In this document: positions 3,968-20,305 of the stretch, piece by piece
How the letters are laid out: each line of letters opens with the position of its first letter
Numbering within the stretch: position 1 is the stretch's first letter
Source of the DNA: Promethearchaeati archaeon
GTDB lineage: Archaea > Asgardarchaeota > Heimdallarchaeia > Heimdallarchaeales > Heimdallarchaeaceae
Assembly (NCBI GenBank): GCA_013166775.1
Contig: JABLTJ010000004.1
Location: forward strand, 105,834 to 169,833
Reading direction: 5' to 3'
DNA length: 64,000 bases
Position numbers and translations under genes: made by a program
Notes under the pieces: model-generated
What the model was told of the DNA's origin: nothing
Databases searched by the model: none
What the model saw: the letters and a program-made list of their open reading frames with translations, nothing else

Positions 3968-5737
3968 TTATCCCGTCTCACTAGTTATATTGTTTTTAGA
4001 TAAATGCTTTGTTCGTCCTAGTTTATTATTAATAAAATTGAAAACAGCTGAAAGAGGGAGTAAGAATGAATAAATCAAATATAATGCACCTAAAGCTGTA
4101 ATCAACAATACAAGAATTTCTCCATTAAGAATTAAACCTAAATTAGGTGTAAGCAACATCCCTAAAACGAAATTGTTTACTACATGTAAGAAAATAGCTG
4201 CATGTAAACCATACTTATAGAAAGCATATCCAAAGATTAATCCAGCTACTGCAGCTTGGAAAATCTTCCCTTCTTGCCAATAAGGATAACCTAATTGATA
4301 GTGTACATACCCGAAACTATAGGATGAAAAGAGAAGAAAAAGAAAATCAATTAATCCTAATTTCTTCCAGCGTCCTGTTAGGTAAAAGAGGGGATTCTTA
4401 GGTTTTTTTTCAAATATATATCTTGCAACTCTAGACGAATTTGAATGATTTTTTTTGTTTCTTTTAATCATTATTTGTGATAATTTTATTATTCCATAAA
4501 AAATACCATTTAGAATAAACAGAGGTAGTCCAAACAAAAGAAAACGATATGTTATTTCTTCATTAAAACCAGCCCAATATAATTGTGATAACTGTACGTA
4601 TAGTACATCATAATTGATATCTATTTGTGAAGCTATGGGTATTCCTAAATTAAGAAGAATAATGATTATGAATGAAGCTAAAGCTAGATTTAAGCAAGCC
4701 AAGTTCATTACAGGAATTATATCACTGACCATTATTCGTTTGAAGAATTTCTCTGTTCTATTTTTCGAGGTTCCAGGCAAAGTTGATGGAGGGCTATATT
4801 CCTTTGGCTGAATATCAGGAGAGAGAATGTTGAATGCTATATCATCCATTGATTCTTCAGGAGAAAAATCTCCAGCATCAGATGGTACTTCCTCTAATGA
4901 CAGTTTTTTGTCCTTTCTAGGTAAGTAGAATAATAGAATAGTAATACCGAAGAGAGCAAAACACATTAAAGATTGAGTAAGTTTCCAATCAACGATAAAT
5001 TTTGATGGAATTGAGGTTGATACAAAAAATTCTTGTCTAAAACCCAACTCAGCTTTGTAAGAGTAAAAGAAATTAGGATAAGTAAAAGAAAGATTTGCGA
5101 CAACTGTATCAGAAGGTATTGAAGGAAAGACGATGAAAACAAGAAAATTAGAAACAACAAGCATTATTGCTACAACAACCATACTATTTTTCCACAGTTT
5201 ATTTATGGAATACTGAGATTGTTTAACAAGTGATCCCAAACCAATTTTCCTATCATCTGGTAAGATGATTTCTTTATGGATCAGTAATCCAAGATGCTGT
5301 TCAATTTTCGGATAGGTGAAGATTCCAATTAGAGAGCTCAATATAGCTATTTGTAGAAATTGAAGTAGGTTAGTAGAGACTGTGATTAGGATAAAATTAT
5401 CTCTGAAAATTGTTAAATAGACAATAATAGTATAAATCAGAATAATACCAAATAAAGGTAAGAAGAATTTAAACAGATGAGTGAGTGCATTATCACCTTG
5501 ATCCTTTTTATTTATTATAAACCATCTTCGAATTTTCCAACCATATAAAATGTAAAAGATTACTGAAATGAAATAAATTACTATAGAAATTATGAAGCCT
5601 TGTTCTAGGTAGTAGAAGCCGAAATCAATATCATTGGCAGAGAATAAGGTAATCATAGTGTTTAATGCAGATAAAGCAAGAATGAAAACAGGAATAAAGA
5701 GTGTGTCAAGAATCATTCTACTGATATTCTTCCGCAT
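3968..5737 (-). CDS. CPBP (Abi/Rce1-like) family intramembrane glutamic protease with additional N-terminal TM region
   Basis: Multi-TM protein with motifs EEITYR, FGYVH and HVVNN (EExxxR, FxxxH, HxxxN). Confidence 0.85.
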   Translation of the reverse strand: MRKNISRMILDTLFIPVFILALSALNTMITLFSANDIDFGFYYLEQGFIISIVIYFISVIFYILYGWKIRRWFIINKKDQGDNALTHLFKFFLPLFGIILIYTIIVYLTIFRDNFILITVSTNLLQFLQIAILSSLIGIFTYPKIEQHLGLLIHKEIILPDDRKIGLGSLVKQSQYSINKLWKNSMVVVAIMLVVSNFLVFIVFPSIPSDTVVANLSFTYPNFFYSYKAELGFRQEFFVSTSIPSKFIVDWKLTQSLMCFALFGITILLFYLPRKDKKLSLEEVPSDAGDFSPEESMDDIAFNILSPDIQPKEYSPPSTLPGTSKNRTEKFFKRIMVSDIIPVMNLACLNLALASFIIIILLNLGIPIASQIDINYDVLYVQLSQLYWAGFNEEITYRFLLFGLPLFILNGIFYGIIKLSQIMIKRNKKNHSNSSRVARYIFEKKPKNPLFYLTGRWKKLGLIDFLFLLFSSYSFGYVHYQLGYPYWQEGKIFQAAVAGLIFGYAFYKYGLHAAIFLHVVNNFVLGMLLTPNLGLILNGEILVLLITALGALYLIYSFLLPLSAVFNFINNKLGRTKHLSKNNITSETG

Positions 5738-5903
5738 TTTAATGACCTTTAAATATTATTACTTAAAGTTCTTTTCAGTCTTTAGGTATTTATGAATTTT
5801 TGATATCCAATAGTTTAAGGAAAAGCTTTTAAACATGAATACGACTTTTTGTTCTAATTCAAACATAAGCAAACTAAAGACAACCGATTTACAGGTGTAT
5901 TAT

Positions 5904-6323
5904 ATGAGCAAGAAAAAGAAAGATGAAAAAGAAGAAGTAGTTGAAGAGGAAGTCGAAGAAGAAGTAGGTGAAGAGGAAGCTGAAGAAAAAATAGTTGAAG
6001 AAGCAAAGAAAAAGAAGAAACCTGCTCCTAAAGCTAGAAGTGAAGAAGAGCGTCAAATAATCTACATCGGTAAGAAGAACACCATTAGCTATGTTCTCGT
6101 TGCTGTAACTATATTAAATAAGCATGATAACTGTAATATCCAAGCGAGAGGAAGGCAAATCTCTAAAGCAGTTGATGTTGCAGAGATTACTCGCAGAAAA
6201 TTCTTACAAGACATAGTTGAAGTAAGTGGTGTTATTATTGGTTCTGAAGATATCGCAAGTGATATAGAAGGAATGCCACCTAAGACTGTCTCTACAATTG
6301 AGATAATTATGAAGAAAAAATAG
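5904..6323 (+). CDS. albA: DNA/RNA-binding chromatin protein Alba with charged N-terminal extension
   Basis: IYIGKK..SYV, ARGRQISKAVDVAE and VSTIEI motifs; ATG 5904 is preceded by AGGTG and is preferred over the ORF start at 5835. Confidence 0.92.
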   Translation: MSKKKKDEKEEVVEEEVEEEVGEEEAEEKIVEEAKKKKKPAPKARSEEERQIIYIGKKNTISYVLVAVTILNKHDNCNIQARGRQISKAVDVAEITRRKFLQDIVEVSGVIIGSEDIASDIEGMPPKTVSTIEIIMKKK

Positions 6324-6380: not shown

Positions 6381-7790
6381 TTAGATGAAATCTCCTGTTT
6401 CAATCTTTTGAGGTAGATAGAAATTTGTAATATATTGTGGATCTCGAGCATTCAGAGCTTGTATTTCAGCTTTATACCCACTGGAAATTAGAATCTCTAA
6501 CTGTTCTTTCCATCTTGGTTTTCTTACTACAAATTCCTCTTCTAGCATAAGCTTAGATCTATGAATATCTTTGGCAGTCATTTTTAGGAGAGTGCTACTA
6601 GGAATATCAAAACCACTTTCTGGAGCTAGATCACTTGGAAGAAGCCCCAACCACTTAATGCTTGGTACTGCTAAATGACTAGATTCGAAGCTTAGTGCTT
6701 TGCTTCCTACACTATAAACTCTCATGATTTCAAATCCATAGGGATCGGCATCCATAATCGCAAAAATAGGGAGCTTCAATTCATCATCTATTTTTTTGAG
6801 AAACTGTCTTGTTGCAATATCTGGTTGTCCTTTTGCAGTTATTAGAATACTTGGCACATAATCATAAAAATGATCTTCTGCTAATCTATTAAAGACAGCA
6901 TCTTTTTCTATTACTAATACAAATTCTGCATCAGAATCTAAATCTTCTATGTCATCTATATTCGGTGAAATAGCTTTTCCTGCTCCAATTGCTCTACAAT
7001 TAATTAAATCACCTTTTTCCTTAAAATCTATGCGACCTACAACTATACCTTTAGAAGATGCACTTATGTTGAGTGAGGATCTAGTTACTTGCAACATTGC
7101 GCTCAAATCCTCTAATAATGAATCAGAGACAGTTTGCTTCTCAAACGAATTAACATCCATGTAAAATACATCTCTTTTGGTACTATGAATATCTCTGGTA
7201 AGAATATCGTGAATAATCCTCATAATGATAGTCATTTGTTCCACAGAGCTTACAGATGCAAGATTACGAAATTGTCGTTCAATCATTTGTCTTCCAATTA
7301 GAACGAGTTCTTGTTCTTCGTCAAATCCTACATTTGTTCCAGCTCTAGAGGGAATATAAAACGAAGCTTCAGATGGAGATAGCATTGCCTGTTGAAGAAA
7401 AGCCAAAGAGTATTCCACAAGCAAATTGTTGGTTTCTTCAGATGTTTTAGTATCTACATGAGTAACACCAAAAGGCATAAAATGATCTAATTTATGTTCA
7501 AGTTCTTTACGAACATCTTGAATCTTTTTCAGAGAAACTGCGTTTTTTATACTGATTTTCATTGTTTCCTTTTGCAAAGGGTATCTTGATAATTTTCGAG
7601 TTGATTCCAGTTTGTACCATTTCTTTGCACTTCTGAGAAATAAAACAAAAGATCCTCGCCTAAGATCAAAGGCTTCTCTAGCCCATGAATACATTTCTCT
7701 AACTAAAATTTCTTTATCAAAACTAAATGGTTTTTCCAATGCGGGTATAATTGTTGAGTTTCTAAATATGAAATTAAATTCAGGTGGCAT
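6381..7790 (-). CDS. top6A: DNA topoisomerase VI subunit A (Spo11 family) with N-terminal ubiquitin-like extension
   Basis: TKRDVFY (catalytic Tyr), VIEKDAVF, TAKGQPD, DADPYG (TOPRIM) and KAEIQAL; lies 2 bp downstream of top6B. Confidence 0.96.
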   Translation of the reverse strand: MPPEFNFIFRNSTIIPALEKPFSFDKEILVREMYSWAREAFDLRRGSFVLFLRSAKKWYKLESTRKLSRYPLQKETMKISIKNAVSLKKIQDVRKELEHKLDHFMPFGVTHVDTKTSEETNNLLVEYSLAFLQQAMLSPSEASFYIPSRAGTNVGFDEEQELVLIGRQMIERQFRNLASVSSVEQMTIIMRIIHDILTRDIHSTKRDVFYMDVNSFEKQTVSDSLLEDLSAMLQVTRSSLNISASSKGIVVGRIDFKEKGDLINCRAIGAGKAISPNIDDIEDLDSDAEFVLVIEKDAVFNRLAEDHFYDYVPSILITAKGQPDIATRQFLKKIDDELKLPIFAIMDADPYGFEIMRVYSVGSKALSFESSHLAVPSIKWLGLLPSDLAPESGFDIPSSTLLKMTAKDIHRSKLMLEEEFVVRKPRWKEQLEILISSGYKAEIQALNARDPQYITNFYLPQKIETGDFI

Positions 7791-7792
7791 TT

Positions 7793-10700
7793 TTAATTAC
7801 CCTCCTTTTTTTGGGTGTTTGAAGATTTCTTAACCGTTGTTGTATTTTTGTTACTTTTGGTCATATCCAACAAAGTTGTCTGTCTAGCTTTAGCTGATTT
7901 TCTATCGGCAGATTTTGTTGTAACTGAAGTTTTTGGTTTTACTGAGGTTGAACCAGCTTTTTTAGGTGTAGCTTTTTTAGTAACAGGTTTTGAGGTACTA
8001 GTTTTCTTAATGACTTTTACTTTCTTAGGTGGAAGTCTGCTTTTTAGGCTCTTGATAGCCATATAACTGAGATCTGTTTTCTCATCGAGTTGCGCAGCTG
8101 GATAAACTACAAAATCTTTGATGGTGGTAATTCCTAATTGCTTGATTTGCTTAATTACTTCAGGTTTTATCTCTAAAGTTCCAATGGGTTGTTCAAGTAT
8201 TCCTATCAGCTTCTTAACATTTGGATCCTTTAACGATGTGGAATTCTTCATCTCTGTATCTGGCATTAAAAGTGCTTGAAGAGTGGTTATACTACTTCCT
8301 TTCAATTGAGCTATATTACCTTCAGTAATATGTGGAAGTGTTTTTCTTATTTCGACTTGATCCTTTTCAGCTTGCTTGAGAGATTCAGGATTCAATGACG
8401 CATAAAGTGATCGAAGATCCTTTACAGGTAGTGTAATTATCTTAGAGAGCTGTTGAACTAGAGTTGCGAATAAATCCCATAAATTATTGATATTTTTGCT
8501 ATGCAACAGAAAAACACTCTGAGCATTGATTTTAATCATGTCAGTAAGATAATAAATCGGGGTTTCCAGAAGTTTTTGTATTCGAGATATTTGAAGTTTA
8601 TTTAATCTCGAAGTTGAAGCTATGAGTTCTTCTGAGGCTTTCAAATGAGCGATGGTTGTATAACCAGATATCTTTAATAATTTCTTTGTGTTTTTATCGA
8701 ACAAACCTATCTTATCTACAGGATAACTCTTGTTAACCAACGCATCTTTTATCGACAAGAGACTCAAGGAACTTTGTAATTTCTGTACAATTGTTTGTTC
8801 CTGTTCTGTAAGAGACATTTTTACAACTTTTCTTACATCTGGAACAACAATGAAATCAATAACTTGTACGATTCCTGCTACTTCTAATTTAGAAATTAAT
8901 CGTTCTTGATTAACAAACAGATTGATCGGAGCTCTTAGAGCAATAACTAATTCGACAAGTTCTGGCTCGTAATCTGCGATCTCCGTATTCTCTAGATGTT
9001 TAATCAGAGTACCGAAGGATCTAATTTTCTGTTTTCTGAGGAAAGGTGCTAACTCTGAACCGCGTATAAAGCTAGACAATCTCTTCTGTTCATCGTCCAG
9101 CATTCTTTCCACTTTTGTTGAGGATAATTTAGGTAAAAGATTAGCACAACTCAGTTTATCGCTTTCAGGTGTAGTTGATTTGCAATAGAGCAATAAATCA
9201 TAAATATTGACTAGCTTTAATTCTGATACAAGTTTCTGGATATTCTTGGATTGTCTAATAGGTGGTAATGAAAGCAATTCTGTTTCTACCATAGAACAAA
9301 CAGTTTCTGTGAGTTTCCAGAGAGAACTTGTTTTAGCACTAGATTGTCTATTGAAAATTATAGCTTCTTCAATTGAATAAATAGTGTTACTCTCTAATTG
9401 TGATATATTACTTCCACTAAGTAATTCAGAAGGTAGATTCGTCAATTCCTTTTCAAGATCATTTAAAAGACTAATTGATATATTTCTAAGATTTCTTAGG
9501 AATGTCGTTTCTGAGATCTGTTTCTTAATCTTGATACTATCTTCTAGCAATAACTCTCTGATATTTCTATATGGGAGTTTAGCTACTTGATCGATACTAT
9601 TTCTAGTAGGAGCTAAGAGAATAGGAGATCTTGATAAAAATGGAACCAATTCCTTGAATCGCTTACTTATTTTTGAGTGTAGATGCGATTTTGTTTGGTC
9701 ATAGATTGCAGTTTTATGCTTTTCAAGTAATAGTAAATATTCAATTGTTGAATCTGACATTTCCAATTTCTGATCTTTAGATTCAAGATTGAGTATTTGA
9801 GATAGGGGTAAACCTTTACTAAAAATGAAATTAATTACAGTACTGATACTATCTCGCTGTTTTTTCTCCATGGTCATTTTATCTATGCTTGGAGCCAAAT
9901 ATGCAAGGTCTAATATTGATAAGGAAAACTCGGAAGTTGAATCAAAATCTTTCAAATTTAGTTGTTTAAAGATTTTTATCTTATCCAAGATATAGTTTGG
10001 AACTTTCTCAAGTTTTACTTTCTTCTCAAAAAGGTCTACATAAGTCTTGATGTCCTTTTGTTTCAGGATGTCTATATCCTTTTTGGAGAATAATTTATTC
10101 TCTTTAATTATTGGATGATGACCAATGTTGCCTTCAGTTAATGAATAACGCAGTTTTTCAACTTCAGTTTGTTTAAGGGAAAGAATTGAAGATAACTCTT
10201 TGTTTGTTAATAAATATAAATCTTCAATTGTTTTAATCGATTGGAGTAACCTCTGCCAACTTTTTATTGTTACATTAGGGAATAACAATAATTGTATTGG
10301 AGTATTCAATCTTCTTTGTATTTTGTTTCCTAAAGCTCTGGATATTGGATAATTTTCTTGTTTCAAAGAGTAGATTAAATCGTCCATTGTGGAATAATGT
10401 TTAAGAGTTTCTTTCTTCGTTTCAGCATCAAAAATCTTAATCTTACTTAGTTGAACTTTTTTGCTAACATCTGTTTCTATCTTCTTATATGATAATGATG
10501 TTAGTGAAGTAATTATTGCTTCCTTGAATGAAGCAGGAGTCAAATTGGTCCAGAAAGAGCCAGGTTTGATAATAAGTTCACCAACAGTGAATACTCCTTT
10601 CAAGGCAAGATTTTCGGTATCAGACTTCGAAAGAAAAGACAATGAAGAAACAGGATTCTGGAATGATTGATTGATTTTGTGTCCTAATATGCTTAATGAA

Positions 10701-13700
10701 TCCTTATTCTGTTCTAAAACAGTGACTAAATCAACAACTGTGTTGACATTAGAGACACTAACCTTCTTTGAGAATAACTCACCTGGATTGTCATTTTCAA
10801 GATATTGTGAGAGTGGTATATAATCGCTTTTAACAGCTGTTTTGTTCGCAGAAAATAGTTTCATGAATCCTATGATTTTATTCTTTTCAGCTTGAGTACT
10901 TGAGGAAATGAGTTCTTGTACTGTTGTTATTCCAGTTTCAAAATAATCTCTTTTGATATCTGAAAGGGTATGTTCTGATATACTTGGATAATACAGGATT
11001 GAGGTTGCTAGAGCTGATCTTGTTTTATTTCGTATTTGTTGTATTTTCTTCTCTGAAACAAGCCAGTCATAAATGGAGTTTCCTGCAAGTTCATCTAGAG
11101 AATAAATTCCTATCGATTTTAAGAAATTTCTATCTGCTGTTGATAAGAAAAAGAATTCATCAGCAATCTTTTCAGCTATTGTATCAAGCTTTTGGATTAT
11201 ATTATCTATTTTAAAACTATCAATCTGATTTTGTATATCAGAAACTTTTGTCTTTGTCGTTGCTGCAACTATACTAGGGGACATAAAGAATAAATCTGCT
11301 ATAATTGTAAAATCAGCTTTTTTCCATTTATCTAGAATTTTTGGATCAACTTCTAGATATTTTAGATTTGCTAGAAGATAAGGAGCAAATTTAGTATAAA
11401 TCTCTTCATCTTCCTTAAATGAAGGAGAGGTTATAAGAGCCTTATATGACGAAAATCCTTTCTGCTGTAGAAAAACTTCCAACTCAGAGAGAGGTTCGAC
11501 GAATCCAGATTCTCTTATACTTTTGATCAATGAGAGAGAATCCAGAATTTCCTCTTGAATATTCTTGGGAAGTTTCTTTATGAAAATAAGATGCTCAATG
11601 ATTGTAGTTAGTCCTAGGTCATAACAAAAATCAATGGATTCTTGTGTAATAGTGGACAAGTAACTAATGTTATATGACAGTTTATCTCTCAAAGCATTAA
11701 TGTCATTTGATTTCAATCGTGTATTTTTCACAATATATTCAATAGGGATGAAATACAAGTGCTCGATTGTAGAAACACCTATTTGAAGGAGTGGAGTGGT
11801 TAATTTAGCTGACAAGCTTAATTTCTCTAATCCTATTCCCTGTTTCTTTATATTTTTAAAGAGCTTAACTAGATAATTTGGATCTTCTTTTTGATTATCA
11901 ATTAGCTTATGCAAGCTAGGAGACCAGTTCTTTGGAGGGATTTCCAACAAGTTTGTGTAGGTTATAACACTGTTGCTTAGCAAATCCTTAATCTCAGTAT
12001 GTTTGAATTTTAGAGTCTTTCCGATTAGAGTAATTGGTGTTAAGAGATAAGAAGTAAGTTTCACTATTTTGTTACGTTCTTCATTTGAGAAAGGTAATAA
12101 ATCTAGATTCAGTTTCGATGCTTGAATAAGCGAAACACAACCATAATCAGCTAAGATTTTTCTTGTATCTTGAGATATTTCAGGAAATAGGCTTAAATCC
12201 ATTCCAGTTTGTTTAACATTTTGCTCCAGAAGTTTTATATCTTGAGTTGTTTTGTTTCGAGTAACCTGCTCTTCTGGAATCTTTGTAATTGCGGAGAGTA
12301 GAGGTGTAGGAACCAATAGGAATTGGTAAAGATTCCTTATACCATGTCCCTTAATTTTATCAATTTGCTTTGTTGAAAGATTATCGACTGAAGACAAGGG
12401 AAGGCTTTTCAGAGAGAGAATCAAGGGATAAACCTCAGCTAGTAAGCTTTCATTTTCAACAATCTTGCTATCTAGTGAGAGTAGTTCATCTAAAAAGATA
12501 ATTTTTTCATCTTTTAGTTTCTTTAGAATAGATGGATCAGTTATTATTTTTGTATCTTCAAGTTTAATTGCCCAATCTGGTGGACTGAATTGAATAATAC
12601 TGCTATTCAGAAATTCAGTAGTCTTCGAATACAAACTTTGATATTGTTCATTTTGAGATAAAAGTAATAATCCTGAGATTATATTTATTCCACCTATTTG
12701 AGCAAGAGACAGCAATTGTTTAACACTTAAGGACAAGTCAGAAGTAAGCCAAGAGATTGGTTTAAACATATTTGAAGTTGCAATTCTTATGATTGATTTC
12801 TCAAGATCATCTAGCTCAAAAACTGGATGAGGGATGAAATCAATTATCAATAATGCGCTTGATAATCCATATTTCATAAATTGTTTTTCTGCTTTGTTTG
12901 GGAATGACAAAGAATGATCTATAAACTGTGAAAATGTTTCAGACATTTTCTTACTTAATTCAAATTCTCTCTTAAAATTCCTTATTTCTGATGTTGTTTC
13001 TTTTGAAACACCGGTTAATTCACTTAAGTTAAGTGAGAGAAGTTCTATAACATGTTTGATCCCTTTGTTCCACAAAACTGATTTTGTAGGAATACTAATG
13101 CCAGGGATGGATAATACATTCAAACATAAGAAACTGACGAGCTGTTCGATGAATGCGATGCTTGAGGTTTTTACAATCTTATCTGATTCTGTTAGTTGCA
13201 TTAAAGCCTCAGGTATGAACCCAAATAAGTCCTCTGCAGCTTTTTTAGTTGGATCAAATTCCAAGGATTTTAGTAATTGAATTATAGGTTCATTTAGCTT
13301 TAATTGAGCACCTTTAGAGAGAGTAAAAGCTCCTTTCCTAATCTTACTTATTTCTTTGGGAACAGAACCCTCGAATGCACTTTTAAGATCTTTATCTGAG
13401 CTATTGAATAGATCTATAAGTCTAAGAATTCCTTCTCCTATCAATCTTAGTTTATCCTCTGATGAAAGCTCTTTGATTCTATAAACAGAGATATGACATC
13501 CATTGAGAAATTCTCTCATGTAATCTCCTGAAACACTTATAGAGGGATAAGCTTGATAATTCAAACTATACAAATCTTGTACATATTCTTTTCCAGTTCT
13601 AAGTAATGAAGCAATCTTTCCTTTTGATAATACACTGAATTCTTCGAGTTTTACTCCTTTTCTGTTGACCTCTTTCATTAGGTTTTCAGGCGTTATTCGC

Positions 13701-16700
13701 TCTAAAAATCGCTGGACTTTCTTTTCACTCATTTTTAGAAGAAGAGCAATTGTAGATACATCTTCAGTTATAAATGAGAGAATATCCCCGACTCCTGAAT
13801 AAATTAGCTTGCGAACTTGGTTATTATCCAAGCCTATGAATGCAACAGAAGCTCGGTATAGTTGAACTTCTCTGAAGATGTCAAGTTTCACTAAAGCAGG
13901 ACGCGACTCTCTAATTTCTTCCATGCGGGAAATAAAGTCCTGGATTGAGTTTATTCCAATATCATTCAGTTTCTCCAGATAATCTTCCTCTATAGAGGGG
14001 CAAACAGAAAGAGGAATTGCAGAACTTATACGTCTTTCAGCAAGTTCATCAAAAGAGATAAGATCTAATGCATGAAACTCTTGATAAATTGGATTTTGAG
14101 TGATCTGATGTAACTCGTCTTTATTTACTAATGCAAGATCAATTACTGAATTTATCTCATGAAATTCTAATCGTTTCAATTCATCATATGAAAGAAATCC
14201 AATGAATCTTATAGATCCAGAAAGAAGCTCCTTTGCTTTCTTGTATTCTTCTATTGAAAGAATTTCAGAGATACCCATAATGCTTGCAGAATAAAAGAAT
14301 GATTCAATATCGGAAACACCTATGTCTTTCAGATCTTCTATCTTCTTTTCTGACAAGTACTCTGAAGGTCTTATTATATGAGCTTGAGATAAGCGGAAAG
14401 CAACTATATCGGAATAGGTTAATGCATCTTTTATTTCTCTTATTTCTTTTTGAGAATTACCAGTTATCTCAGAAATTTGTTTTACTGGAATTGAAAAGAA
14501 ATCAATTAAAGTATTAACTGAGGATTTACTTAACTTGAGAGCAATTGATCTAGGTAATCCCATAGAAGCAATAGGAATTGCAAGCTCCATGATTAACCTG
14601 TCTAACGAATCATCTTCTAATAAACGAGTATAAAATGGTTGAAGAGCAGAATGTTCTTCAAAATCAATTTCGAAAACATCTCCAATTATTACGTTTTTGT
14701 ATTCTTCTCGTCTTGCTTTTCTAATTCGAGTAAAGAACGGTGTGATTCTTAGAGGAAGCTCCAAAATTGATCGAATTAGGGTTAAATTATAATTCTCTGT
14801 TAGATATTGTTGATCCTTCCCCATTAGGTCTTTTATAACCTTATTATCGGTAATTACATCAAATAATGTCTTATTCTCTATATCTTGAACTACTTTCTTG
14901 AAATAAGATGAATTATAAACAGTAGCAGGGAGATTCGCAAAATAATGAAATGCCTGCATTATAATGATTTTTGAAGAATATGTTGATACAACACGGAACA
15001 GAACAGGATCTGTAAGATCTGCATCAGGAATGAAAAGCAATTGGTAAACATAATTGATGTTATTTTGCTCAAGAATCTCCATAGAAAACTCTGAAATCTC
15101 TGTGAAAATCTTTAATGGTAGTGTTAGATACTTCTGAACTGCAGAGATTTTTTTCCATATTTCTGGATTGGAATAATAGTATTGCTCCTCTGTTGAGTAA
15201 TATAGTTCTTGGATTGTTTGAAAACGCTCAAATTGAAATATTGAATCTCTACTTAATACTCTTTGCTCATGCTTATCAAATAGTTGTGTTTCAAAGGCAA
15301 AAATACCTTTGTTTTCATAGAGAGCTTGAATGCTAGATGTTGTCAAAGTTGTTATAATTTCCTTAACCTCTTCTGGTTGAGCTTTTATTAATTTACTAGT
15401 TTTTTGAGCTGGAGCCATAATGAATTCTGCAATAGTTTGAATTCCATTTTCTCTAAGAATTTCAGTATTGGTAAAGGATATAGATGGTAAGAAATAAACT
15501 GGTAATGAGAAGTAACCAAAGATATCGGATAAATCTAAAGCATTCTTTATGGTTTCAAATCTTTCATCCGCAATTCCTGTCTTTTCCATAAGTGCTTCAG
15601 GTGAGGATAACATGAATCCAAGTAGAGTGGAAATACTAGCTTTTCTTAGTATTTCGATAATCTCTGGATCTAACATATCTGATATATGATTGAGTGGAAG
15701 GTTCAAGATTGCTTTAAAAGATTCAATAACATACCAAGGTAGAGAATCTATTGTCCATTTGTCCTTTGAAGTTGAGAAGTACAGATCCTCAATTGTGACT
15801 ATATTATGTATATCTAATTCTCTTACAATCCTAGGTTCTAAAATTCCAAGTTCTGATAGATCTATTCCAGTATCACTTATTCGTACATTCTTTTGCAGTG
15901 ATCTAGCTTCTTCGATTTCAATACCTAGATACTCAATTAAATCTGAGGGTTGACTAACCAGTAAATCGATAATTTTTGTTATTCCATGATTACGAAGGGT
16001 GTTCAATTGTTGAGTAGATAGAGTAGAAACTAGTATATCATCTATATAACTATCTTCTTCTGTTTCCTCATCTTTTACTGCTCTCTTAATCTCTTGTTCC
16101 CAAGTCACTAAGGTTAATGGAGAACGTAGAAGTTTCCTAAATTTTTCTATCACATTCCAATTAACAAAAGCTGATGAAAATGTGAGAGGGTTTGCAAGAT
16201 AGAAGATTTTGTCTATGGTATCGTATCCAGATAGAATTAAAGAAACAATCTCAGGAGAGGAGAATCTCTCAGACTCTTCAAATTCAAATGAAATTAAGGA
16301 CTCATATTTATTCCCTTTTTTCTCAAAGAAGAAGGTTCCTTGTTTTAGAATTGAAAAATTCTCAAATAGTTGTGTTACATTTTCCTCTTCTTTTCCAAGA
16401 ATGGATGCTAATTCTGCAACAGTAAAATCAAAGATTTGATGGATGGCTATTATTCCATAATTTCTCAATTTATCATAATCATCCAAAGTGAGACCACTAA
16501 TTCTTGATATCGGAAGAGCTAGACTTCGTAGAAACTCATCATACTCGCTAATAAGAACTATTTGTTTATTAAATTCACTCTCTTCATCGATATCTCTTGT
16601 TTTAATTTTATTGTATAAATTCAAAGCTAACTTTCTTTCTTTTGTTGAACTAAGTTCTGACTCAATTATCTCAGGAAGCAAATCTAAAAACTGTCTGATT

Positions 16701-19700
16701 GTTACAATATTTCTTAATTTTAACTTTAGTAATGTATTTTTTAGTTCAGGATGCTCTTTGAACTTACTAGAATATATTTGAGTAAGCTCGATTAATTCAA
16801 GATTAGAAAGTTTGTTCAGACTCTCAAAATTCTTCCAAAAATCTTGAGTTAATGATGGTTTTTCAGTAGGGTAGACACTGAAAAGATCCTGCAAATTAAG
16901 GTTAAATTGATCAAAATAACTAATGAATTTTGGAAAGATTTTCTTAAATATTTCAATATCTTTTCCAAAAGTAGCTCTGTTTTTATTAATTTCTTCTGCT
17001 GAAACAGTCTTCTTGAATTCTTCTATTTTTATTTCCGATAGATTTAGAATTTCTGCTAATTCACTGTTAGACCATAGTGTGAAACGACCTATGCAGTTTA
17101 TACCCACATCATATAACAGATTAGAATTCTTACGAAGAGAGGGAAAAGCAAAAATCAGAGGAGTTCGGAGGAATGTTGAGATTTCTATATATTTTTTCTT
17201 GTTTTCTGATGATAAAGAATAGGCTTCTGGAGGATTATAAAACAGCTCTTCTAAGGTAACAATTCCTTCTGTTTTAAAGAATTCAGGTTCATCAATCCAA
17301 GAGGGTATAGGTACCCCCAGTTTCTTCTTAATCCACTCAATATCTTTTTTACGTAAACCAACTTTACGTAATTGGGGAGAAGGATAAGCTAAGAAAGAAG
17401 AGGTTGTAAAAATTTGAAGAGCAGTCAAGTCTCTTTCAATATCTTGAGGTATGATTTTTATGTGAGAGAGATCTTTATCCTGTTTGGTCTCCCTAATATG
17501 AGATAAGAGTTTATATTTAGATTCTTTAAGTAAGAAATCGCGAAGCGATGCAAATTTCTTGTTATGAATTGAATTTACTGGTAAATAAATTAAATCCAAT
17601 AAAGTTGAGATCTTGTTTGTAGCTAGAATCTTCTTGACTTCTGATTCTTCTTGGTTTAAACTTTCATCTGTTGTAAATTGTAACTTTGATAAAGAAATAG
17701 ACTTCGAAGAAGAAGAAAGGATATCCATATAAGATGCATAGAGTTTTCGTTCAAGTTCTTTGATTACTATTAGTTCATCAAGATTAGTATTCAGAAAATT
17801 CTCGATTGTTTTTATTTTTCTCCTGTGGAAAGCGTTCTTAGTATATGCATCCGTCCAATCAGGAGTCATTTTAGTAATATTTGTTTTAGCAAAATCTGGG
17901 AATTTATCACATAATTGGGAATAAACATTCTGCATATAATTTACTAATATTGCAGTAATTTCTGCTTGATAATTTATAGTAGTAGGTAGTTTAGTTTGAA
18001 AGAGAAACTCCTCGATAGTTGTTTCTTGAGCGATTAAACCCTTAGAATTATCCTTTAGGTAATCAAACGATGGGAATAAAGTCTGTATTTTTAGGTCTGT
18101 TGTTTTAGTCAAGGAAGCTATTAGTTGCTTACCTTCGGAGGAAATTGCAGCACCATTTTTCTTATTCCTATTGAGTAAAAACTGATGTAACAAATCTTCC
18201 CTCATATTTTCAAAAAGCTTCTCTGGTAAACCCGCAACTGATTGAAGTTTATAAAAATCAGTAGCAAAGTAATGATAACTATTTTGTATCCAACGTCTAT
18301 ACAAAGAGTCCTTTAAAGAATCAAATGATTTTCCATTGTCTGAAATAAATCTTTTTTCTATGGTTCTACTCACAAAGATTTTAGGATCAAATCCTGGACT
18401 CATACCTTCCCTATCTAGTTCTGATATTGTTCTCAATTTTATGTTGTAAATATCCTCTTCAGAGAGCGATAGAAGAGTTACAAGTTCTTTTGAAGGGGTA
18501 ATAAGAAAATCTGCAACAGACTCAATTTCTTTTGATTTCAAAGCTGATTGTATTCTTGAAGGACACCATACATTGGCTCCAAAAAGTCTTTTTCCTAAAG
18601 GCATGAAGAGTTTGACTTTTTTCGTTGCTCCATGAGCAAGCGCTGCTGCAATTCGATCTGTTTCCAACCTGAAATCAGTATAGCTTAGATCTTCATCTTC
18701 CAATATTTTTGTTAGATTCTCAACAATTATTGGAGCTGATCTAACAAAACGAGATAATCTTGCATGTTCTCTTCGTTTTCTTTTTGCTCTACTAAGAAAG
18801 GTCTTTAATCTTCTTCCTAATTGCATTAGAGCTAATCTAATTTCTTCCTCAATCTCTGGAACAATAGATACATATTCCTTGCTAGTTTCTGGGAAGGGTA
18901 TTTTTGTACTAACTAATGAAACAGCAATTGCTAATGGATCAGATTGTCTAGTAAGACCATAATCACTCCACCTTATTGAAGAGACAACATGTGTAATAAC
19001 ATCGTTCCCAGCACCAAAAACAAGAGGGATTCGATTAGCATAACGATATATTATCTTATTATCTGTTACTGTCGCACCTTTTACTTGTGATGCTTCAGCT
19101 ACTCCTCCACCATATCCTAATGCTGCTTCAATAACAAATGGATGTCCAGAGTAAGCTTTTGGAGCTCGAGTGATAGCTTCTACGAATTTTGGCTGTAATT
19201 CTTTTTCCAAACCTTTCCTTAATCGGTTTGATCCTAGAGGTGAAAGAGCTGTTCCTCTTGGGGCATCAAACTGGAAAATTCTATCTCTTTTTCTCTTTAC
19301 ATCTTTAGCTTCTTGATATGCTTTCACGAATCCTTCATGAACAATTCTTCGAATCTCATGAGATGTGATATCTTTTGGGGATTTGTTTGGATCTATCTCT
19401 AGGAGCTGGAAGAAATGCTCTGCTATTTCCTCATTCACTCCCATAAATTGTGTGGCTAGAAATTCCTTCAATTTCTTGCTTCTAGTCACTGCTAATTCAG
19501 CTTTAAACTGTGTAATATCACACCCCCAAGGATGAATTTTCACTGGTTGAGGAGGTGGAGGCATATCATCGACAACACTCTCATAGTCCAACTCCTCTGT
19601 TTCTCCTTCCTTGTCACCTGGTAATCTAACTTTGAAGCTTGAGTAAGGAGTAATAATTGCTAACTGTTTGAAATACTCCTTCACACTATTTTTCGCTAAT

Positions 19701-20305
19701 CTCCAAGCACCTGTAAATGTAATTGAAATTTCCAAACCTGGTTCTTCCAAATAATTAGGATCTCCTGGAAGATATTCATGCTGTTCCATAATAATTGGTT
19801 CATTCTTTTCCAGGTTAATCATCAAGTGCATTTCATGGGTTATATCGTCCATGAAATACCTACTACGAATCTTAGCGGGGAGATCTACAGAAGACATTGA
19901 ATAAAGCAAACACATTTTTGCTCCTAAACCGAATCTTCCACGTGTCTGAATAACACCATATTTAGTTCCTGTTAAAACTCTCCCAAATAGATCTGCAATC
20001 TCATTACCAGGAACTCCAACACCATTATCTCTGCATGATAATTGAAGAAAATCTAAATGCTTTTCCAGTTTCTTGTATTGTGTTACATCCAATAGCTCAT
20101 TAATTTCTCTACTGGATAATTTTCTTAAATCAATAGAAATAATTGGACTAGTTCCTCTCTTTTCTGCTGAATCCAAGCCATTTTCAACTAATTCTCTTAT
20201 GCTAGTAAAGACTGCTCTCATAGAATTTCCAAAGCCTGCAATAGCTCTATTCTCATTAAAAAAAGCTGCTGCAGACATCTTCTTTGTGATAGAATTTTCA
20301 GACAC
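7793..20305 (-). CDS. top6B: Giant DNA topoisomerase VI subunit B fused to a ~3500-aa array of HhH-like repeats
   Basis: First ~560 aa carry GHKL motifs (RELVENGLDS, DNGVG, TRGRFGLG), an H2TH region and the transducer (RYANRIPL, KIPFPETSKE). The rest is tandem L..xGI.TI.DL repeats ending in a basic tail. One uninterrupted 4170-aa frame with a GTG start. Confidence 0.93.
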   Translation of the reverse strand: MSENSITKKMSAAAFFNENRAIAGFGNSMRAVFTSIRELVENGLDSAEKRGTSPIISIDLRKLSSREINELLDVTQYKKLEKHLDFLQLSCRDNGVGVPGNEIADLFGRVLTGTKYGVIQTRGRFGLGAKMCLLYSMSSVDLPAKIRSRYFMDDITHEMHLMINLEKNEPIIMEQHEYLPGDPNYLEEPGLEISITFTGAWRLAKNSVKEYFKQLAIITPYSSFKVRLPGDKEGETEELDYESVVDDMPPPPQPVKIHPWGCDITQFKAELAVTRSKKLKEFLATQFMGVNEEIAEHFFQLLEIDPNKSPKDITSHEIRRIVHEGFVKAYQEAKDVKRKRDRIFQFDAPRGTALSPLGSNRLRKGLEKELQPKFVEAITRAPKAYSGHPFVIEAALGYGGGVAEASQVKGATVTDNKIIYRYANRIPLVFGAGNDVITHVVSSIRWSDYGLTRQSDPLAIAVSLVSTKIPFPETSKEYVSIVPEIEEEIRLALMQLGRRLKTFLSRAKRKRREHARLSRFVRSAPIIVENLTKILEDEDLSYTDFRLETDRIAAALAHGATKKVKLFMPLGKRLFGANVWCPSRIQSALKSKEIESVADFLITPSKELVTLLSLSEEDIYNIKLRTISELDREGMSPGFDPKIFVSRTIEKRFISDNGKSFDSLKDSLYRRWIQNSYHYFATDFYKLQSVAGLPEKLFENMREDLLHQFLLNRNKKNGAAISSEGKQLIASLTKTTDLKIQTLFPSFDYLKDNSKGLIAQETTIEEFLFQTKLPTTINYQAEITAILVNYMQNVYSQLCDKFPDFAKTNITKMTPDWTDAYTKNAFHRRKIKTIENFLNTNLDELIVIKELERKLYASYMDILSSSSKSISLSKLQFTTDESLNQEESEVKKILATNKISTLLDLIYLPVNSIHNKKFASLRDFLLKESKYKLLSHIRETKQDKDLSHIKIIPQDIERDLTALQIFTTSSFLAYPSPQLRKVGLRKKDIEWIKKKLGVPIPSWIDEPEFFKTEGIVTLEELFYNPPEAYSLSSENKKKYIEISTFLRTPLIFAFPSLRKNSNLLYDVGINCIGRFTLWSNSELAEILNLSEIKIEEFKKTVSAEEINKNRATFGKDIEIFKKIFPKFISYFDQFNLNLQDLFSVYPTEKPSLTQDFWKNFESLNKLSNLELIELTQIYSSKFKEHPELKNTLLKLKLRNIVTIRQFLDLLPEIIESELSSTKERKLALNLYNKIKTRDIDEESEFNKQIVLISEYDEFLRSLALPISRISGLTLDDYDKLRNYGIIAIHQIFDFTVAELASILGKEEENVTQLFENFSILKQGTFFFEKKGNKYESLISFEFEESERFSSPEIVSLILSGYDTIDKIFYLANPLTFSSAFVNWNVIEKFRKLLRSPLTLVTWEQEIKRAVKDEETEEDSYIDDILVSTLSTQQLNTLRNHGITKIIDLLVSQPSDLIEYLGIEIEEARSLQKNVRISDTGIDLSELGILEPRIVRELDIHNIVTIEDLYFSTSKDKWTIDSLPWYVIESFKAILNLPLNHISDMLDPEIIEILRKASISTLLGFMLSSPEALMEKTGIADERFETIKNALDLSDIFGYFSLPVYFLPSISFTNTEILRENGIQTIAEFIMAPAQKTSKLIKAQPEEVKEIITTLTTSSIQALYENKGIFAFETQLFDKHEQRVLSRDSIFQFERFQTIQELYYSTEEQYYYSNPEIWKKISAVQKYLTLPLKIFTEISEFSMEILEQNNINYVYQLLFIPDADLTDPVLFRVVSTYSSKIIIMQAFHYFANLPATVYNSSYFKKVVQDIENKTLFDVITDNKVIKDLMGKDQQYLTENYNLTLIRSILELPLRITPFFTRIRKARREEYKNVIIGDVFEIDFEEHSALQPFYTRLLEDDSLDRLIMELAIPIASMGLPRSIALKLSKSSVNTLIDFFSIPVKQISEITGNSQKEIREIKDALTYSDIVAFRLSQAHIIRPSEYLSEKKIEDLKDIGVSDIESFFYSASIMGISEILSIEEYKKAKELLSGSIRFIGFLSYDELKRLEFHEINSVIDLALVNKDELHQITQNPIYQEFHALDLISFDELAERRISSAIPLSVCPSIEEDYLEKLNDIGINSIQDFISRMEEIRESRPALVKLDIFREVQLYRASVAFIGLDNNQVRKLIYSGVGDILSFITEDVSTIALLLKMSEKKVQRFLERITPENLMKEVNRKGVKLEEFSVLSKGKIASLLRTGKEYVQDLYSLNYQAYPSISVSGDYMREFLNGCHISVYRIKELSSEDKLRLIGEGILRLIDLFNSSDKDLKSAFEGSVPKEISKIRKGAFTLSKGAQLKLNEPIIQLLKSLEFDPTKKAAEDLFGFIPEALMQLTESDKIVKTSSIAFIEQLVSFLCLNVLSIPGISIPTKSVLWNKGIKHVIELLSLNLSELTGVSKETTSEIRNFKREFELSKKMSETFSQFIDHSLSFPNKAEKQFMKYGLSSALLIIDFIPHPVFELDDLEKSIIRIATSNMFKPISWLTSDLSLSVKQLLSLAQIGGINIISGLLLLSQNEQYQSLYSKTTEFLNSSIIQFSPPDWAIKLEDTKIITDPSILKKLKDEKIIFLDELLSLDSKIVENESLLAEVYPLILSLKSLPLSSVDNLSTKQIDKIKGHGIRNLYQFLLVPTPLLSAITKIPEEQVTRNKTTQDIKLLEQNVKQTGMDLSLFPEISQDTRKILADYGCVSLIQASKLNLDLLPFSNEERNKIVKLTSYLLTPITLIGKTLKFKHTEIKDLLSNSVITYTNLLEIPPKNWSPSLHKLIDNQKEDPNYLVKLFKNIKKQGIGLEKLSLSAKLTTPLLQIGVSTIEHLYFIPIEYIVKNTRLKSNDINALRDKLSYNISYLSTITQESIDFCYDLGLTTIIEHLIFIKKLPKNIQEEILDSLSLIKSIRESGFVEPLSELEVFLQQKGFSSYKALITSPSFKEDEEIYTKFAPYLLANLKYLEVDPKILDKWKKADFTIIADLFFMSPSIVAATTKTKVSDIQNQIDSFKIDNIIQKLDTIAEKIADEFFFLSTADRNFLKSIGIYSLDELAGNSIYDWLVSEKKIQQIRNKTRSALATSILYYPSISEHTLSDIKRDYFETGITTVQELISSSTQAEKNKIIGFMKLFSANKTAVKSDYIPLSQYLENDNPGELFSKKVSVSNVNTVVDLVTVLEQNKDSLSILGHKINQSFQNPVSSLSFLSKSDTENLALKGVFTVGELIIKPGSFWTNLTPASFKEAIITSLTSLSYKKIETDVSKKVQLSKIKIFDAETKKETLKHYSTMDDLIYSLKQENYPISRALGNKIQRRLNTPIQLLLFPNVTIKSWQRLLQSIKTIEDLYLLTNKELSSILSLKQTEVEKLRYSLTEGNIGHHPIIKENKLFSKKDIDILKQKDIKTYVDLFEKKVKLEKVPNYILDKIKIFKQLNLKDFDSTSEFSLSILDLAYLAPSIDKMTMEKKQRDSISTVINFIFSKGLPLSQILNLESKDQKLEMSDSTIEYLLLLEKHKTAIYDQTKSHLHSKISKRFKELVPFLSRSPILLAPTRNSIDQVAKLPYRNIRELLLEDSIKIKKQISETTFLRNLRNISISLLNDLEKELTNLPSELLSGSNISQLESNTIYSIEEAIIFNRQSSAKTSSLWKLTETVCSMVETELLSLPPIRQSKNIQKLVSELKLVNIYDLLLYCKSTTPESDKLSCANLLPKLSSTKVERMLDDEQKRLSSFIRGSELAPFLRKQKIRSFGTLIKHLENTEIADYEPELVELVIALRAPINLFVNQERLISKLEVAGIVQVIDFIVVPDVRKVVKMSLTEQEQTIVQKLQSSLSLLSIKDALVNKSYPVDKIGLFDKNTKKLLKISGYTTIAHLKASEELIASTSRLNKLQISRIQKLLETPIYYLTDMIKINAQSVFLLHSKNINNLWDLFATLVQQLSKIITLPVKDLRSLYASLNPESLKQAEKDQVEIRKTLPHITEGNIAQLKGSSITTLQALLMPDTEMKNSTSLKDPNVKKLIGILEQPIGTLEIKPEVIKQIKQLGITTIKDFVVYPAAQLDEKTDLSYMAIKSLKSRLPPKKVKVIKKTSTSKPVTKKATPKKAGSTSVKPKTSVTTKSADRKSAKARQTTLLDMTKSNKNTTTVKKSSNTQKKEGN
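8040..18560 (-). repeat. Protein-level tandem repeat of ~55-60-aa helical units (RadA/Rad51 N-terminal or RNAP alpha-CTD-like HhH)
   Basis: Examples: LRNYGIIAIHQIFDFTVAELASILG, LRNHGITKIIDLLVSQPSDLIEYLGI, LRENGIQTIAEFIMAP, IKQLGITTIKDFVVYPAAQL. No exact DNA repeat seen; boundaries approximate. Confidence 0.8.

Follow-up and report, generated by a model that had tools for sequence, protein, structure and literature searches.

The only Top6B of a Heimdallarchaeaceae archaeon is about eight times larger than usual. An intact topoisomerase VI B core is fused in frame to a continuous train of about 55–58 small helix-hairpin-helix ((HhH)2) domains, which is predicted to be folded and ends in a basic tail with a PIP-box-like motif. 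The gene was analysed in a 64,000-nucleotide stretch of DNA (the window; GCA_013166775.1, contig JABLTJ010000004.1, positions 105,834 to 169,833), and the coordinates below are those of the window. The observation in the original prediction, a Top6B core continuing into a huge repeat array within the normal top6B-top6A operon, was confirmed. Its interpretation is only partly supported, and the reading of the array as a DNA-binding or DNA-wrapping arm is not supported as stated. The features of the locus are as follows.

7793..20305, minus strand: giant top6B ORF, 4170 aa including the stop codon (7793–7795)
18671..20305, minus strand: Top6B catalytic core, aa 1–545, with GHKL ATPase (about aa 9–245), H2TH (about aa 258–340) and transducer (aa 349–537) with a long C-terminal helix (aa 483–537)
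8030..18622, minus strand: array of about 55–58 (HhH)2 units, aa 562–4092, units of about 54–67 aa often alternating short and long; aa 624–864 is helical but less regular
12686..15685, minus strand: most constrained part of the array, aa 1541–2540; aa ~1400–2130 is net acidic
12926..16108, minus strand: segment modelled with AlphaFold2, aa 1400–2460
7796..8029, minus strand: Lys/Ser/Thr/Pro-rich basic tail, aa 4093–4170, net charge +20, pI 10.9
7862..7882, minus strand: PIP-box-like motif QTTLLDM, aa 4142–4148, inside the basic tail
6381..7790, minus strand: top6A (Spo11 homologue), 469 aa, with TP6A_N and Toprim domains and about 110 extra N-terminal residues

The giant top6B is one continuous frame of 4170 codons with a GTG start. 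Orthologues have ATG at the same position, and an alternative ATG at codon 10 would give 4161 aa. Residues 1–545 match NCBIfam PRK04184 (2.3e-131), the Pfam transducer Topo-VIb_trans (2.9e-53, positions 1–158 of 159) and S. shibatae 2zbk_B (5.8e-85). The N-box, G1 and G2 motifs (RELVENGLDS, DNGVGVP and TRGRFGLGAK) align to those of S. shibatae and are invariant in 29 orthologues, and the switch-lysine segment STKIPF aligns to STKIPY. The alignment to 2zbk_B runs through the H2TH region, and the model of the core (pLDDT 83) shows this helical module at aa 264–335 with pLDDT of about 85–90. In the WKxY DNA-sensing motif of the transducer, W446 and Y449 are invariant, but the lysine is replaced by serine (WSDY against WKRY). 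top6A starts 2 nt after the stop, read as TAA-AA-ATG, and matches TP6A_N at 5e-20 and Toprim at 3.1e-58, with KRDVFY and DADPYG present. The genome contains a single Top6B and a single Top6A.

Residues 562–4092 form a gap-free train of ~60-aa units, which are real but divergent, at 20–30% identity between units. A self-trained HMM finds 33 units, and a profile-profile scan with orthologue alignments finds 41. The AlphaFold model of aa 1400–2460 shows 17 contiguous helical units where sequence methods see 13, so the sequence-silent gaps are units too. About 55–58 units is therefore a fair estimate for the whole array, and it matches the count by eye in the original prediction. The claimed alternation of long and short units was also confirmed over long stretches, with spacings of 67/54/67/54 and a dyad of about 121 aa, and internal BLAST matches of 113–123 aa fit this. 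The modelled segment has a mean pLDDT of 86.4 and a pTM of 0.71 over 1061 aa, with only 5 residues below pLDDT 50 and no disordered linkers, although pTM from a 24-sequence alignment may overstate rigidity.

Single units have the predicted five-helix fold of RNAP alpha-CTD and RAD51-paralogue N-terminal (HhH)2 domains, which supports the original proposal of HhH modules of the RadA/Rad51 N-terminal and alpha-CTD kind. Pfam RAD51D_N scores 79.4 bits against a cut-off of 27.3, and the unit profile matches RNAP alpha-CTD 1doq over its full length (residues 5–61, E 1.4e-4), RAD51B and NusA AR. VIA-align gives Z 8.1, 1.8 A and 58 aligned residues to the RAD51B N-terminal domain (9q2a_B), and Z 7.8, 2.1 A and 61 of 67 residues to alpha-CTD (1z3e_B). 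A Z under 8 alone would be weak for helical folds, but here sequence and structure agree. However, the hairpins are degenerate in most units. Over 463 units, Gly is present in 51% at the first hairpin (position 29) and in 30% at the second (position 49). The positions equivalent to the alpha-CTD DNA determinants R265 and K298 are not basic in the unit consensus, with K/R 25% against D/E 36% at position 20 and K/R 13% at position 51.

The gene is not an assembly error. It is intact and collinear in more than 25 relatives from many studies, including the two closed Ca. Heimdallarchaeum genomes CP084166 and CP084167, and top6A always follows. Logan contigs of three runs span the whole gene without indels, although two of these runs may be the source of this DNA. 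The low identity between units means that assembly collapse is not an issue. Orthologues are 4140–4305 aa across the family, while sister families have 3470–3590, 2286–2346 and 1108–1123 aa, giving lineage-typical lengths of 4.2, 3.5, 2.3 and 1.1 kaa. All 13 array-bearing cores lie on one side of a branch with SH-aLRT 100. dN/dS is 0.04–0.15 along the array (dS 0.27–0.56) against 0.05 for the core, and falls to 0.043–0.058 over aa 1541–2540, as low as in the catalytic core. No indels were found against 97%-identical relatives. These values use only the 97% pair, because relatives at 77–89% core identity were saturated (dS above 2 or undefined). The proposal that the architecture is old and maintained is thus supported, with purifying selection unit by unit and conservation across a class.

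In one relative (L042, a MAG) the core and the array lie in different frames, but this is a single frameshift inside homologous sequence, in an A-rich run, and is most likely a MAG error. An array-only protein of 3547 aa without a core (P0008) looked like a split form, but its frame is open to the contig edge, so it is a 5'-cut fragment. A single HMM hit to an HhH unit in a short sister Top6B (L078) did not hold up, and the C-terminal extensions of the short sister Top6Bs are 10–165 aa of acidic or unstructured sequence. The ~1000-aa ORFs upstream of the gene in Heimdallarchaeaceae and Borrarchaeum are unrelated, and no conserved neighbour beyond top6A was found. In this genome the repeat profile matches nothing outside this ORF. 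Promoter and terminator scans used bacterial consensus patterns and are uninformative for an archaeon. No RNA data set was listed among the sequencing runs, which says nothing about expression, and no name for the protein is on record in public sources. Full-text literature searches on topoisomerase VI, Asgard archaea, HhH domains, giant proteins and PCNA/PIP motifs, including PMC9665070, PMC11302465, PMC11894792, PMC8813620 and PMC4929162, found no description of this architecture. PMC8813620 (Extended Data Fig. 7b) lists Asgard proteins over 3000 aa with their CDD domains, and its text and 25 supplementary files do not mention topoisomerase, so the protein may be plotted there without comment.

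The array is uncharged to acidic. Its net charge is -17 over 3547 aa (pI 6.3), orthologues range from -114 to +39, and the mean unit charge is -0.17. In contrast, the last 78 residues are strongly basic, and basic tails of +14 to +40 occur in the 3.5–4.3 kaa orthologues. The original prediction covered neither the basic tail nor the conserved PIP-like motif in it. The tail holds the conserved motif [KR]-Q-x-T-L-x-[DE]-[MIV], in which Q, T and L are invariant in 7 of 8 family orthologues within otherwise variable sequence. It resembles the archaeal PIP consensus peptide KTTQSTLDSFFK quoted in PMC4929162. In QTTLLDMT the Q and L of a canonical PIP box (Q-x-x-[LIM]-x-x-[FYW]-[FYW]) are present, but the aromatic pair is replaced by M and T. 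PIP-like C-terminal endings also occur in some other lineages (QKSLNAF, QKTLDAM, LGQLDKFM and KEVDKFF). The motif is missing, however, from the tails of the three sister families of the same order (forms of 3.5–4.2 kaa), from one family member and from the 1.1-kaa forms. The strict motif occurs in 10 of 29 complete proteins, against 14% of interior 40-aa windows, and the positives are mostly close kin.

A complex prediction of the tail with the genome's own PCNA gave a score of 0.80, whereas the best of 3 controls reached 0.01. This mark was reached by 58 of 80 solved complexes and 2 of 110 mismatched pairs, although these counts hold only roughly because our own alignments were used. The runs agree in at least 55% of contacts, and the partner pLDDT is at least 48. 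The predicted contacts run from tail aa 4139–4148 to PCNA residues 41, 44–48, 126, 130, 231–232 and 248–255, which is the canonical PIP site, comprising the hydrophobic pocket, the interdomain connecting loop (IDCL) and the C-terminal strand. Because many PIP-PCNA complexes are solved, this result may reflect likeness and is not proof that this copy binds.

We regard the architecture as shown by these analyses with high confidence: the single Top6B with its intact core, the continuous all-helical (HhH)2 train, the basic tail with the PIP-like motif, the layout for co-transcription with top6A, so that the A2B2 enzyme would carry two such arms, and a single origin in an Asgard Top6B lineage followed by unit-by-unit purifying selection at lineage-typical lengths. 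What the arm does is inferred, and only tentatively, as are strand passage and decatenation by this enzyme, DNA binding by its units and PCNA binding by its tail. In the favoured view, the arm is mainly a long, stiff, largely uncharged tether or scaffold rather than a DNA-coating array. Its distal basic tail would bind DNA and its PIP-like motif would dock on the PCNA sliding clamp, so that the decatenase would be held within reach of replication forks and freshly replicated sister duplexes. The genome also has gyrase (GyrA is present), so topo VI would be free to specialise in unlinking. Individual basic units may add DNA contacts, and the acidic, highly constrained middle part may bind other proteins. 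The uncharged to acidic array, the lack of conserved alpha-CTD DNA determinants and the tight conservation of length within each lineage favour a tether over a coat, and the basic tail and its PIP-like motif point to a distal anchor rather than wrapping along the whole length. Taken as a whole, mechanism included, this explanation remains somewhat less likely than not.

The DNA-wrapping reading proposed originally, by analogy with topoisomerase V, holds that most of the ~57 units bind the DNA backbone, so that each arm coats or encircles hundreds of base pairs and would hold topo VI on DNA, raise processivity or compact the chromosome. It is considered unlikely, though partial DNA coating is not excluded. 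The units have the fold of known DNA-binding modules (RAD51 NTD, alpha-CTD, polymerase thumb, Hel308 domain 5), 33% of them carry a net charge of +2 or more, K/R is enriched at unit positions 1, 4, 24 and 59, the C-terminal third of the array is mildly basic and the tail strongly basic, and the best, though non-significant, whole-model Foldseek matches are M. kandleri Topo V fragments. However, the array is strongly acidic in several orthologues (-63 to -114), the DNA determinants and second hairpin Gly are poorly kept, the best-conserved kilobase is partly acidic, and alpha-CTD and NusA-AR type domains also serve as protein-binding modules. In another reading, also unlikely on present evidence, the arm is a docking platform for chromatin, replisome or segregation proteins (for example histones, Alba or SMC-type factors), in the way RNAP alpha-CTD, NusA AR and the RAD51-paralogue N-domains bind protein partners, with DNA contact limited to the tail. 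Constraint is unit-specific, with orthologous units far more alike than paralogous ones and dN/dS over aa 1541–2540 equal to that of the catalytic core, the acidic patches in the conserved middle could bind basic chromatin proteins, and the closest folds include protein-binding HhH2 domains. But no partner has been identified, no conserved neighbour gene points to one, and the constraint could equally come from inter-unit packing. A misassembled, chimeric or decaying gene, or a selfishly expanding repeat tract no longer translated as one protein, is for practical purposes refuted by the conserved open frame, the low dN/dS and the absence of any other Top6B in the genome.

A more far-reaching possibility, which is unlikely but not excluded, is that Heimdall-group archaea, the closest known relatives of eukaryotes, turned their type IIB topoisomerase into a clamp-anchored structural machine. 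Each A2B2 enzyme would carry two rigid arms, possibly around 100 nm long, whose length would be set per lineage and would act as a molecular ruler or chromosome-axis element linking PCNA or replicated DNA to the decatenation site. That would be a prokaryotic counterpart of the scaffold and tether roles of the eukaryotic Topo II C-terminal domain, and the first sliding-clamp-coupled type II topoisomerase. Topo VI is the archaeal decatenase and the ancestor of the Spo11/TOPOVIBL meiotic break machinery, and all studied B subunits are 470–800 aa. A B subunit eight times larger, conserved under selection across Heimdallarchaeia, implies an unrecognised layer of topoisomerase biology in the lineage nearest to eukaryotes, which could be tethering to the replisome, chromosome scaffolding or long-range capture of DNA segments. 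It gives a concrete handle on how these cells, which have histones, gyrase and a eukaryote-like replisome, unlink sister chromosomes.

Canonical archaeal Top6Bs (S. shibatae 2zbk_B, 530 aa; M. mazei 2q2e_B, 621 aa, 1.8e-62) share the GHKL, H2TH and transducer domains and the adjacent top6A. The protein described here differs by about 3,600 extra C-terminal residues and the replaced WKxY lysine. Known Top6B C-terminal additions are a single Ig-like domain (M. mazei) or short tails, and other Asgard Top6Bs in our sample are 415–750 aa. PIP-box clients of archaeal PCNA (e.g. Fen1; consensus peptide KTTQSTLDSFFK, PDB 1RXM as cited in PMC4929162) share a C-terminal Q-x-T-L-x-x-h motif preceded by basic residues and the PCNA pocket in which the tail is predicted to dock, but have the aromatic pair. 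No topoisomerase VI is known to carry a PIP box, and the only link found is co-purification of topo VI subunits with NucS in P. abyssi extracts.

The RNAP alpha-CTD and RAD51-family N-terminal domains (Pfam RNA_pol_A_CTD, RAD51D_N, HHH_5; clan HHH) share the single-unit fold and hydrophobic skeleton, with the unit consensus ..PI..L..Ls......L...GI.TI.DLL.....eL..I.GLs...I..IK..L. and matches of Z 7–8 at about 2 A over 56–61 residues. These domains occur singly, or as two repeats in NusA, and use defined basic residues for DNA contact that are not conserved here. Uncharacterised proteins of 450–900 aa with 6–11 tandem alpha-CTD-like repeats were found in a library of 1.84 billion proteins (library entries P0032, P0035, P0036 and P0039, for example), but they have no Top6B core, arrays five to ten times shorter and much stronger matches to the Pfam alpha-CTD model, and are unrelated in context. 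The array is the longest natural HhH-domain train that we could find. The nearest precedent is topoisomerase V of Methanopyrus kandleri (PDB 2csb, 4gfj, 5hm5, 8df9), the only known topoisomerase followed by a long train of (HhH)2 domains, which there is a DNA-binding module. Its catalytic core is unrelated (type IC against type IIB), and it has 12 domains against about 57 here. A Foldseek search of the whole 1061-aa model against the PDB gave nothing at E <= 0.001, and its top rows, Topo V fragments 4gfj, 2csb and 5hm5, are not significant (E 0.03–0.1, rmsd above 20 A), so the trains have different geometry. The Top6B array is also not basic overall. An independent origin is likely.

The minus strand of the window carries one open frame from 20305 to 7793, and its 4170 codons start from a GTG. 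The orthologues begin with MSE..K.KMSAAAFF and have ATG at the same place, so the GTG start is credible, and a start at Met10 (4161 aa) is the alternative. The next gene encodes Top6A, which matched TP6A_N at 5e-20 and Toprim at 3.1e-58 and starts 2 nt after the stop codon of top6B (TAA-AA-ATG). The surrounding features are as follows.

3968-5737, minus strand: ORF of 589 aa with no Pfam family at E <= 0.01
5835-6323, plus strand: 162-aa protein with an Alba domain (Pfam 1e-13, aa 75-131) and a 74-residue N-terminal extension
6381-7790, minus strand: top6A, 469 aa
7793-20305, minus strand: giant top6B, 4170 codons
20475-23546, minus strand: ORF of 1023 aa with no Pfam hit, 170 nt upstream of top6B
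23724-25025, minus strand: ORF of 433 aa with no Pfam family at E <= 0.01

For Top6A, the family models aligned only from about residue 110-140 onward, which leaves about 110 N-terminal residues outside the models. An extra N-terminal helix has been reported in Asgard TopoVIA (PMC9665070). The Alba-domain protein is a chromatin protein next to the topo VI operon, and its gene lies just beyond top6A on the other strand. ORFs of 983-1051 aa sit at the same place as the 1023-aa ORF in most family relatives, but the ~975-aa ORF upstream in Borrarchaeum is unrelated (BLASTP E 0.61). The genome (3.85 Mb, 115 contigs, 89% complete) holds no other Top6B or Top6A. It does encode a GyrA-type protein (contig 54, 81792-83123, minus strand; 853-aa frame, Pfam DNA_topoisoIV 1.8e-140), showing that this Heimdall-group genome has gyrase alongside the giant topo VI.

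Residues 1-545 matched NCBIfam PRK04184 (2.3e-131) and TIGR01052, the Pfam transducer domain (2.9e-53), and the solved B subunits of S. shibatae and M. mazei (5.8e-85 and 1.8e-62, respectively). The N-box, the G1 box, the G2 box and the switch-lysine region all aligned, whereas only W and Y of the WKxY motif are kept (WSDY). An AlphaFold model of aa 1-1100, built with a 29-orthologue alignment (pLDDT 83, pTM 0.50), showed the GHKL, H2TH and transducer domains, the long transducer helix (aa 483-537), one more helix (aa 549-558) and the first repeat unit at aa 583-632. A less regular helical stretch follows to about aa 800, after which regular units resume.

Internal BLAST of the array gave 83 off-diagonal matches at 20-31% identity, and many of them were 110-125 aa long. 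A self-trained 64-position HMM found 33 units. A sliding profile-profile scan with an 18-orthologue alignment found 41 units at 50% probability or more (31 at 90% or more), with spacings mostly of 54-68 aa. An AlphaFold model of aa 1400-2460, built with a 24-orthologue alignment, showed 17 units where the sequence methods found 13. The model has a mean pLDDT of 86.4 and a pTM of 0.71, and only five residues fall below pLDDT 50. It is all-helical and contains 17 copies of the signature "9-residue helix, hairpin, 6-residue helix", with spacings of 60, 56, 64, 67, 61, 60, 64, 56, 67, 54, 67, 54, 67, 54, 57 and 66. The stretches left blank by the sequence methods are therefore units of the same kind. 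With a mean spacing of 61 aa, aa 562-4092 holds about 55-58 units. The 67/54 alternation gives the roughly 120-aa dyad that the original prediction had seen, and the observation of a Top6B with a huge tandem repeat array held.

For the fold of a single unit, Pfam RAD51D_N scored above threshold (79.4 bits), while HHH_5 and RNA_pol_A_CTD were below. The unit profile matched the alpha-CTD of T. thermophilus over its whole length (E 1.4e-4), and also matched the RAD51B and RAD51 N-domains, NusA AR and a Pol IV HhH region. VIA-align placed single units on the RAD51B NTD (Z 8.1, 1.8 A, 58 residues), on alpha-CTD (Z 7.8, 2.1 A, 61 of 67 residues), and on RAD51C/D, Dmc1/RadA, the Hel308/Pol-theta HhH domains and the Dpo4 thumb. 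Such Z values alone are modest for helical domains, but here they agree with the sequence evidence. When the whole model was searched with Foldseek, no significant match was obtained, and the best rows were topoisomerase V fragments at E 0.03-0.1.

The organism is a Heimdallarchaeota MAG of the AB_125 group. To examine whether the gene is real and maintained, Top6B open frames were compared across Asgard lineages, in which f2 to f6 denote families labelled by the genome search.

Table. Length of the Top6B open frame by lineage. Shorter values at contig ends are exceptions, and 396 further matches are not listed.
Own genus and family, including the closed genomes of Ca. Heimdallarchaeum aukensis and endolithica: 4140-4305 aa
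Three sister families of the order (f2-f4): 3470-4244 aa
Another family of the class (f5): 2312-2346 aa
Ca. Borrarchaeum: 2286-2297 aa
Family f6 (which also has a plain ~500-aa paralogue): 1108-1123 aa
All other Asgard families listed: 415-750 aa

Another exception is an Asgard Top6B from another family with a 1353-aa open frame (genome G125, contig C93, 32300-39500). Its extra length is N-terminal to the core and no HhH units were detected, so it is a different kind of enlarged Top6B. Several Asgard families carry two to four Top6B paralogues (for example the loci L060/L061 of genome G056). In family f6 the plain form coexists with the 1.1-kaa array form, and Borrarchaeum has a 564-aa copy beside its 2.3-kaa form. 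In every complete locus, top6A follows the giant gene. In one MAG (Dive100_bin10.34, JAJRQD010000303, 4957-15800), the Top6B core (629-aa frame) and the array (3018-aa frame) are in different frames. The shift lies inside homologous sequence in an A-rich run, so it is probably a MAG sequencing error and not a natural split.

Against two relatives with 97% core identity, the protein is collinear with no indels to aa 3890. The dN/dS is 0.05 in the core and 0.04-0.15 along the array, and aa 1541-2540 is as constrained as the core. Orthologous units are thus far more alike than neighbouring units, so there is no concerted evolution. Logan contigs from three runs of one study, two of which may be the source of this DNA, span the gene without indels. 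On a quick maximum-likelihood tree of 34 Asgard Top6B cores (midpoint root, short search, no outgroup), the 13 array-bearing proteins lie on one side of a branch (SH-aLRT 100), and the 1.1-kaa form branches first. When 1.84 billion representative proteins were searched, the unit profile found only 281 proteins at E <= 0.001. The top ones are giant Top6Bs or contig-cut pieces of them. Lower hits are unrelated proteins of 450-900 aa with 6-11 alpha-CTD-like repeats. Six library proteins of this size (P0032, P0033, P0035, P0036, P0039 and P0047) consist of 4-11 tandem RNAP alpha-CTD-like domains (Pfam RNA_pol_A_CTD up to 7e-100) with no other recognised domain. In the window's own genome, all 28 matches of the profile lie in this ORF.

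While the Top6B core, the repeat array and its conservation are findings of the analysis, the role of the arm, including any binding to DNA or PCNA, is inferred. Three observations argue against a simple DNA coat. The net charge of the array is -17 (pI 6.3), and the orthologous arrays range from -114 to +39. Over 463 aligned units the mean charge is -0.17, the positions equivalent to alpha-CTD R265 and K298 are not basic, and the hairpin glycines are kept in only 51% and 30% of units. The most constrained kilobase also includes the most acidic bins. In contrast, the last 78 residues are Lys/Ser/Thr/Pro-rich with a net charge of +20, and all 3.5-4.3-kaa forms end in such a tail. Inside the tail, the motif [KR]-Q-x-T-L-x-[DE]-[MIV] (aa 4142-4148, QTTLLDM) is conserved in 7 of 8 family members amid otherwise unalignable sequence. 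It resembles the archaeal PIP consensus KTTQSTLDSFFK (PMC4929162), although it lacks the aromatic pair. The motif is absent from the three sister families of the order (f2-f4) and from the 1.1-kaa forms, and some 2.3-3.0-kaa forms end in other PIP-like strings (QKSLNAF, QKTLDAM, LGQLDKFM and KEVDKFF).

To test whether the tail could dock on the sliding clamp, the genome's own PCNA (261 aa, 15-row alignment) was folded together with the tail (7-row alignment). The score was 0.80 (0.79-0.82 among runs), while the best of three controls was 0.01. This mark was reached by 58 of 80 solved complexes and by 2 of 110 mismatched pairs, but these counts hold only roughly because our own alignments were used. 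The runs agreed in at least 55% of contacts, and the partner pLDDT was 48-51. The predicted contacts are between tail aa 4139-4148 and PCNA residues 41, 44-48, 126, 130, 231-232 and 248-255, which is the canonical PIP site. Because PIP-PCNA complexes are abundant among solved structures, the result shows likeness and does not prove binding.

A tether model is therefore favoured, but only tentatively. In this model, two long, stiff and mostly uncharged arms would anchor the decatenase by a basic, clamp-docking end near forks or on replicated DNA. The tightly conserved, lineage-specific arm lengths fit a ruler or tether better than a generic DNA coat. The two alternatives, a DNA-coating arm and a protein-docking scaffold, are both considered unlikely, the scaffold slightly more so, and the three readings are not mutually exclusive. 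The interpretation in the original prediction, that the array is a DNA-wrapping or scaffolding arm, is thus only partly supported.

The giant Top6B is real, conserved and surprising. No paper describing such a protein was found in the literature, although a figure in PMC8813620 may list it among Asgard giant proteins. By every sequence feature that could be tested the protein is a true Top6B. The units of the arm belong to the HHH clan, but most of them have degenerate hairpins and lack the known DNA-contact residues. Topoisomerase V is the only described topoisomerase with an HhH train, and it differs from the giant Top6B in that its catalytic core is unrelated, it has 12 domains rather than about 57, and its geometry differs.
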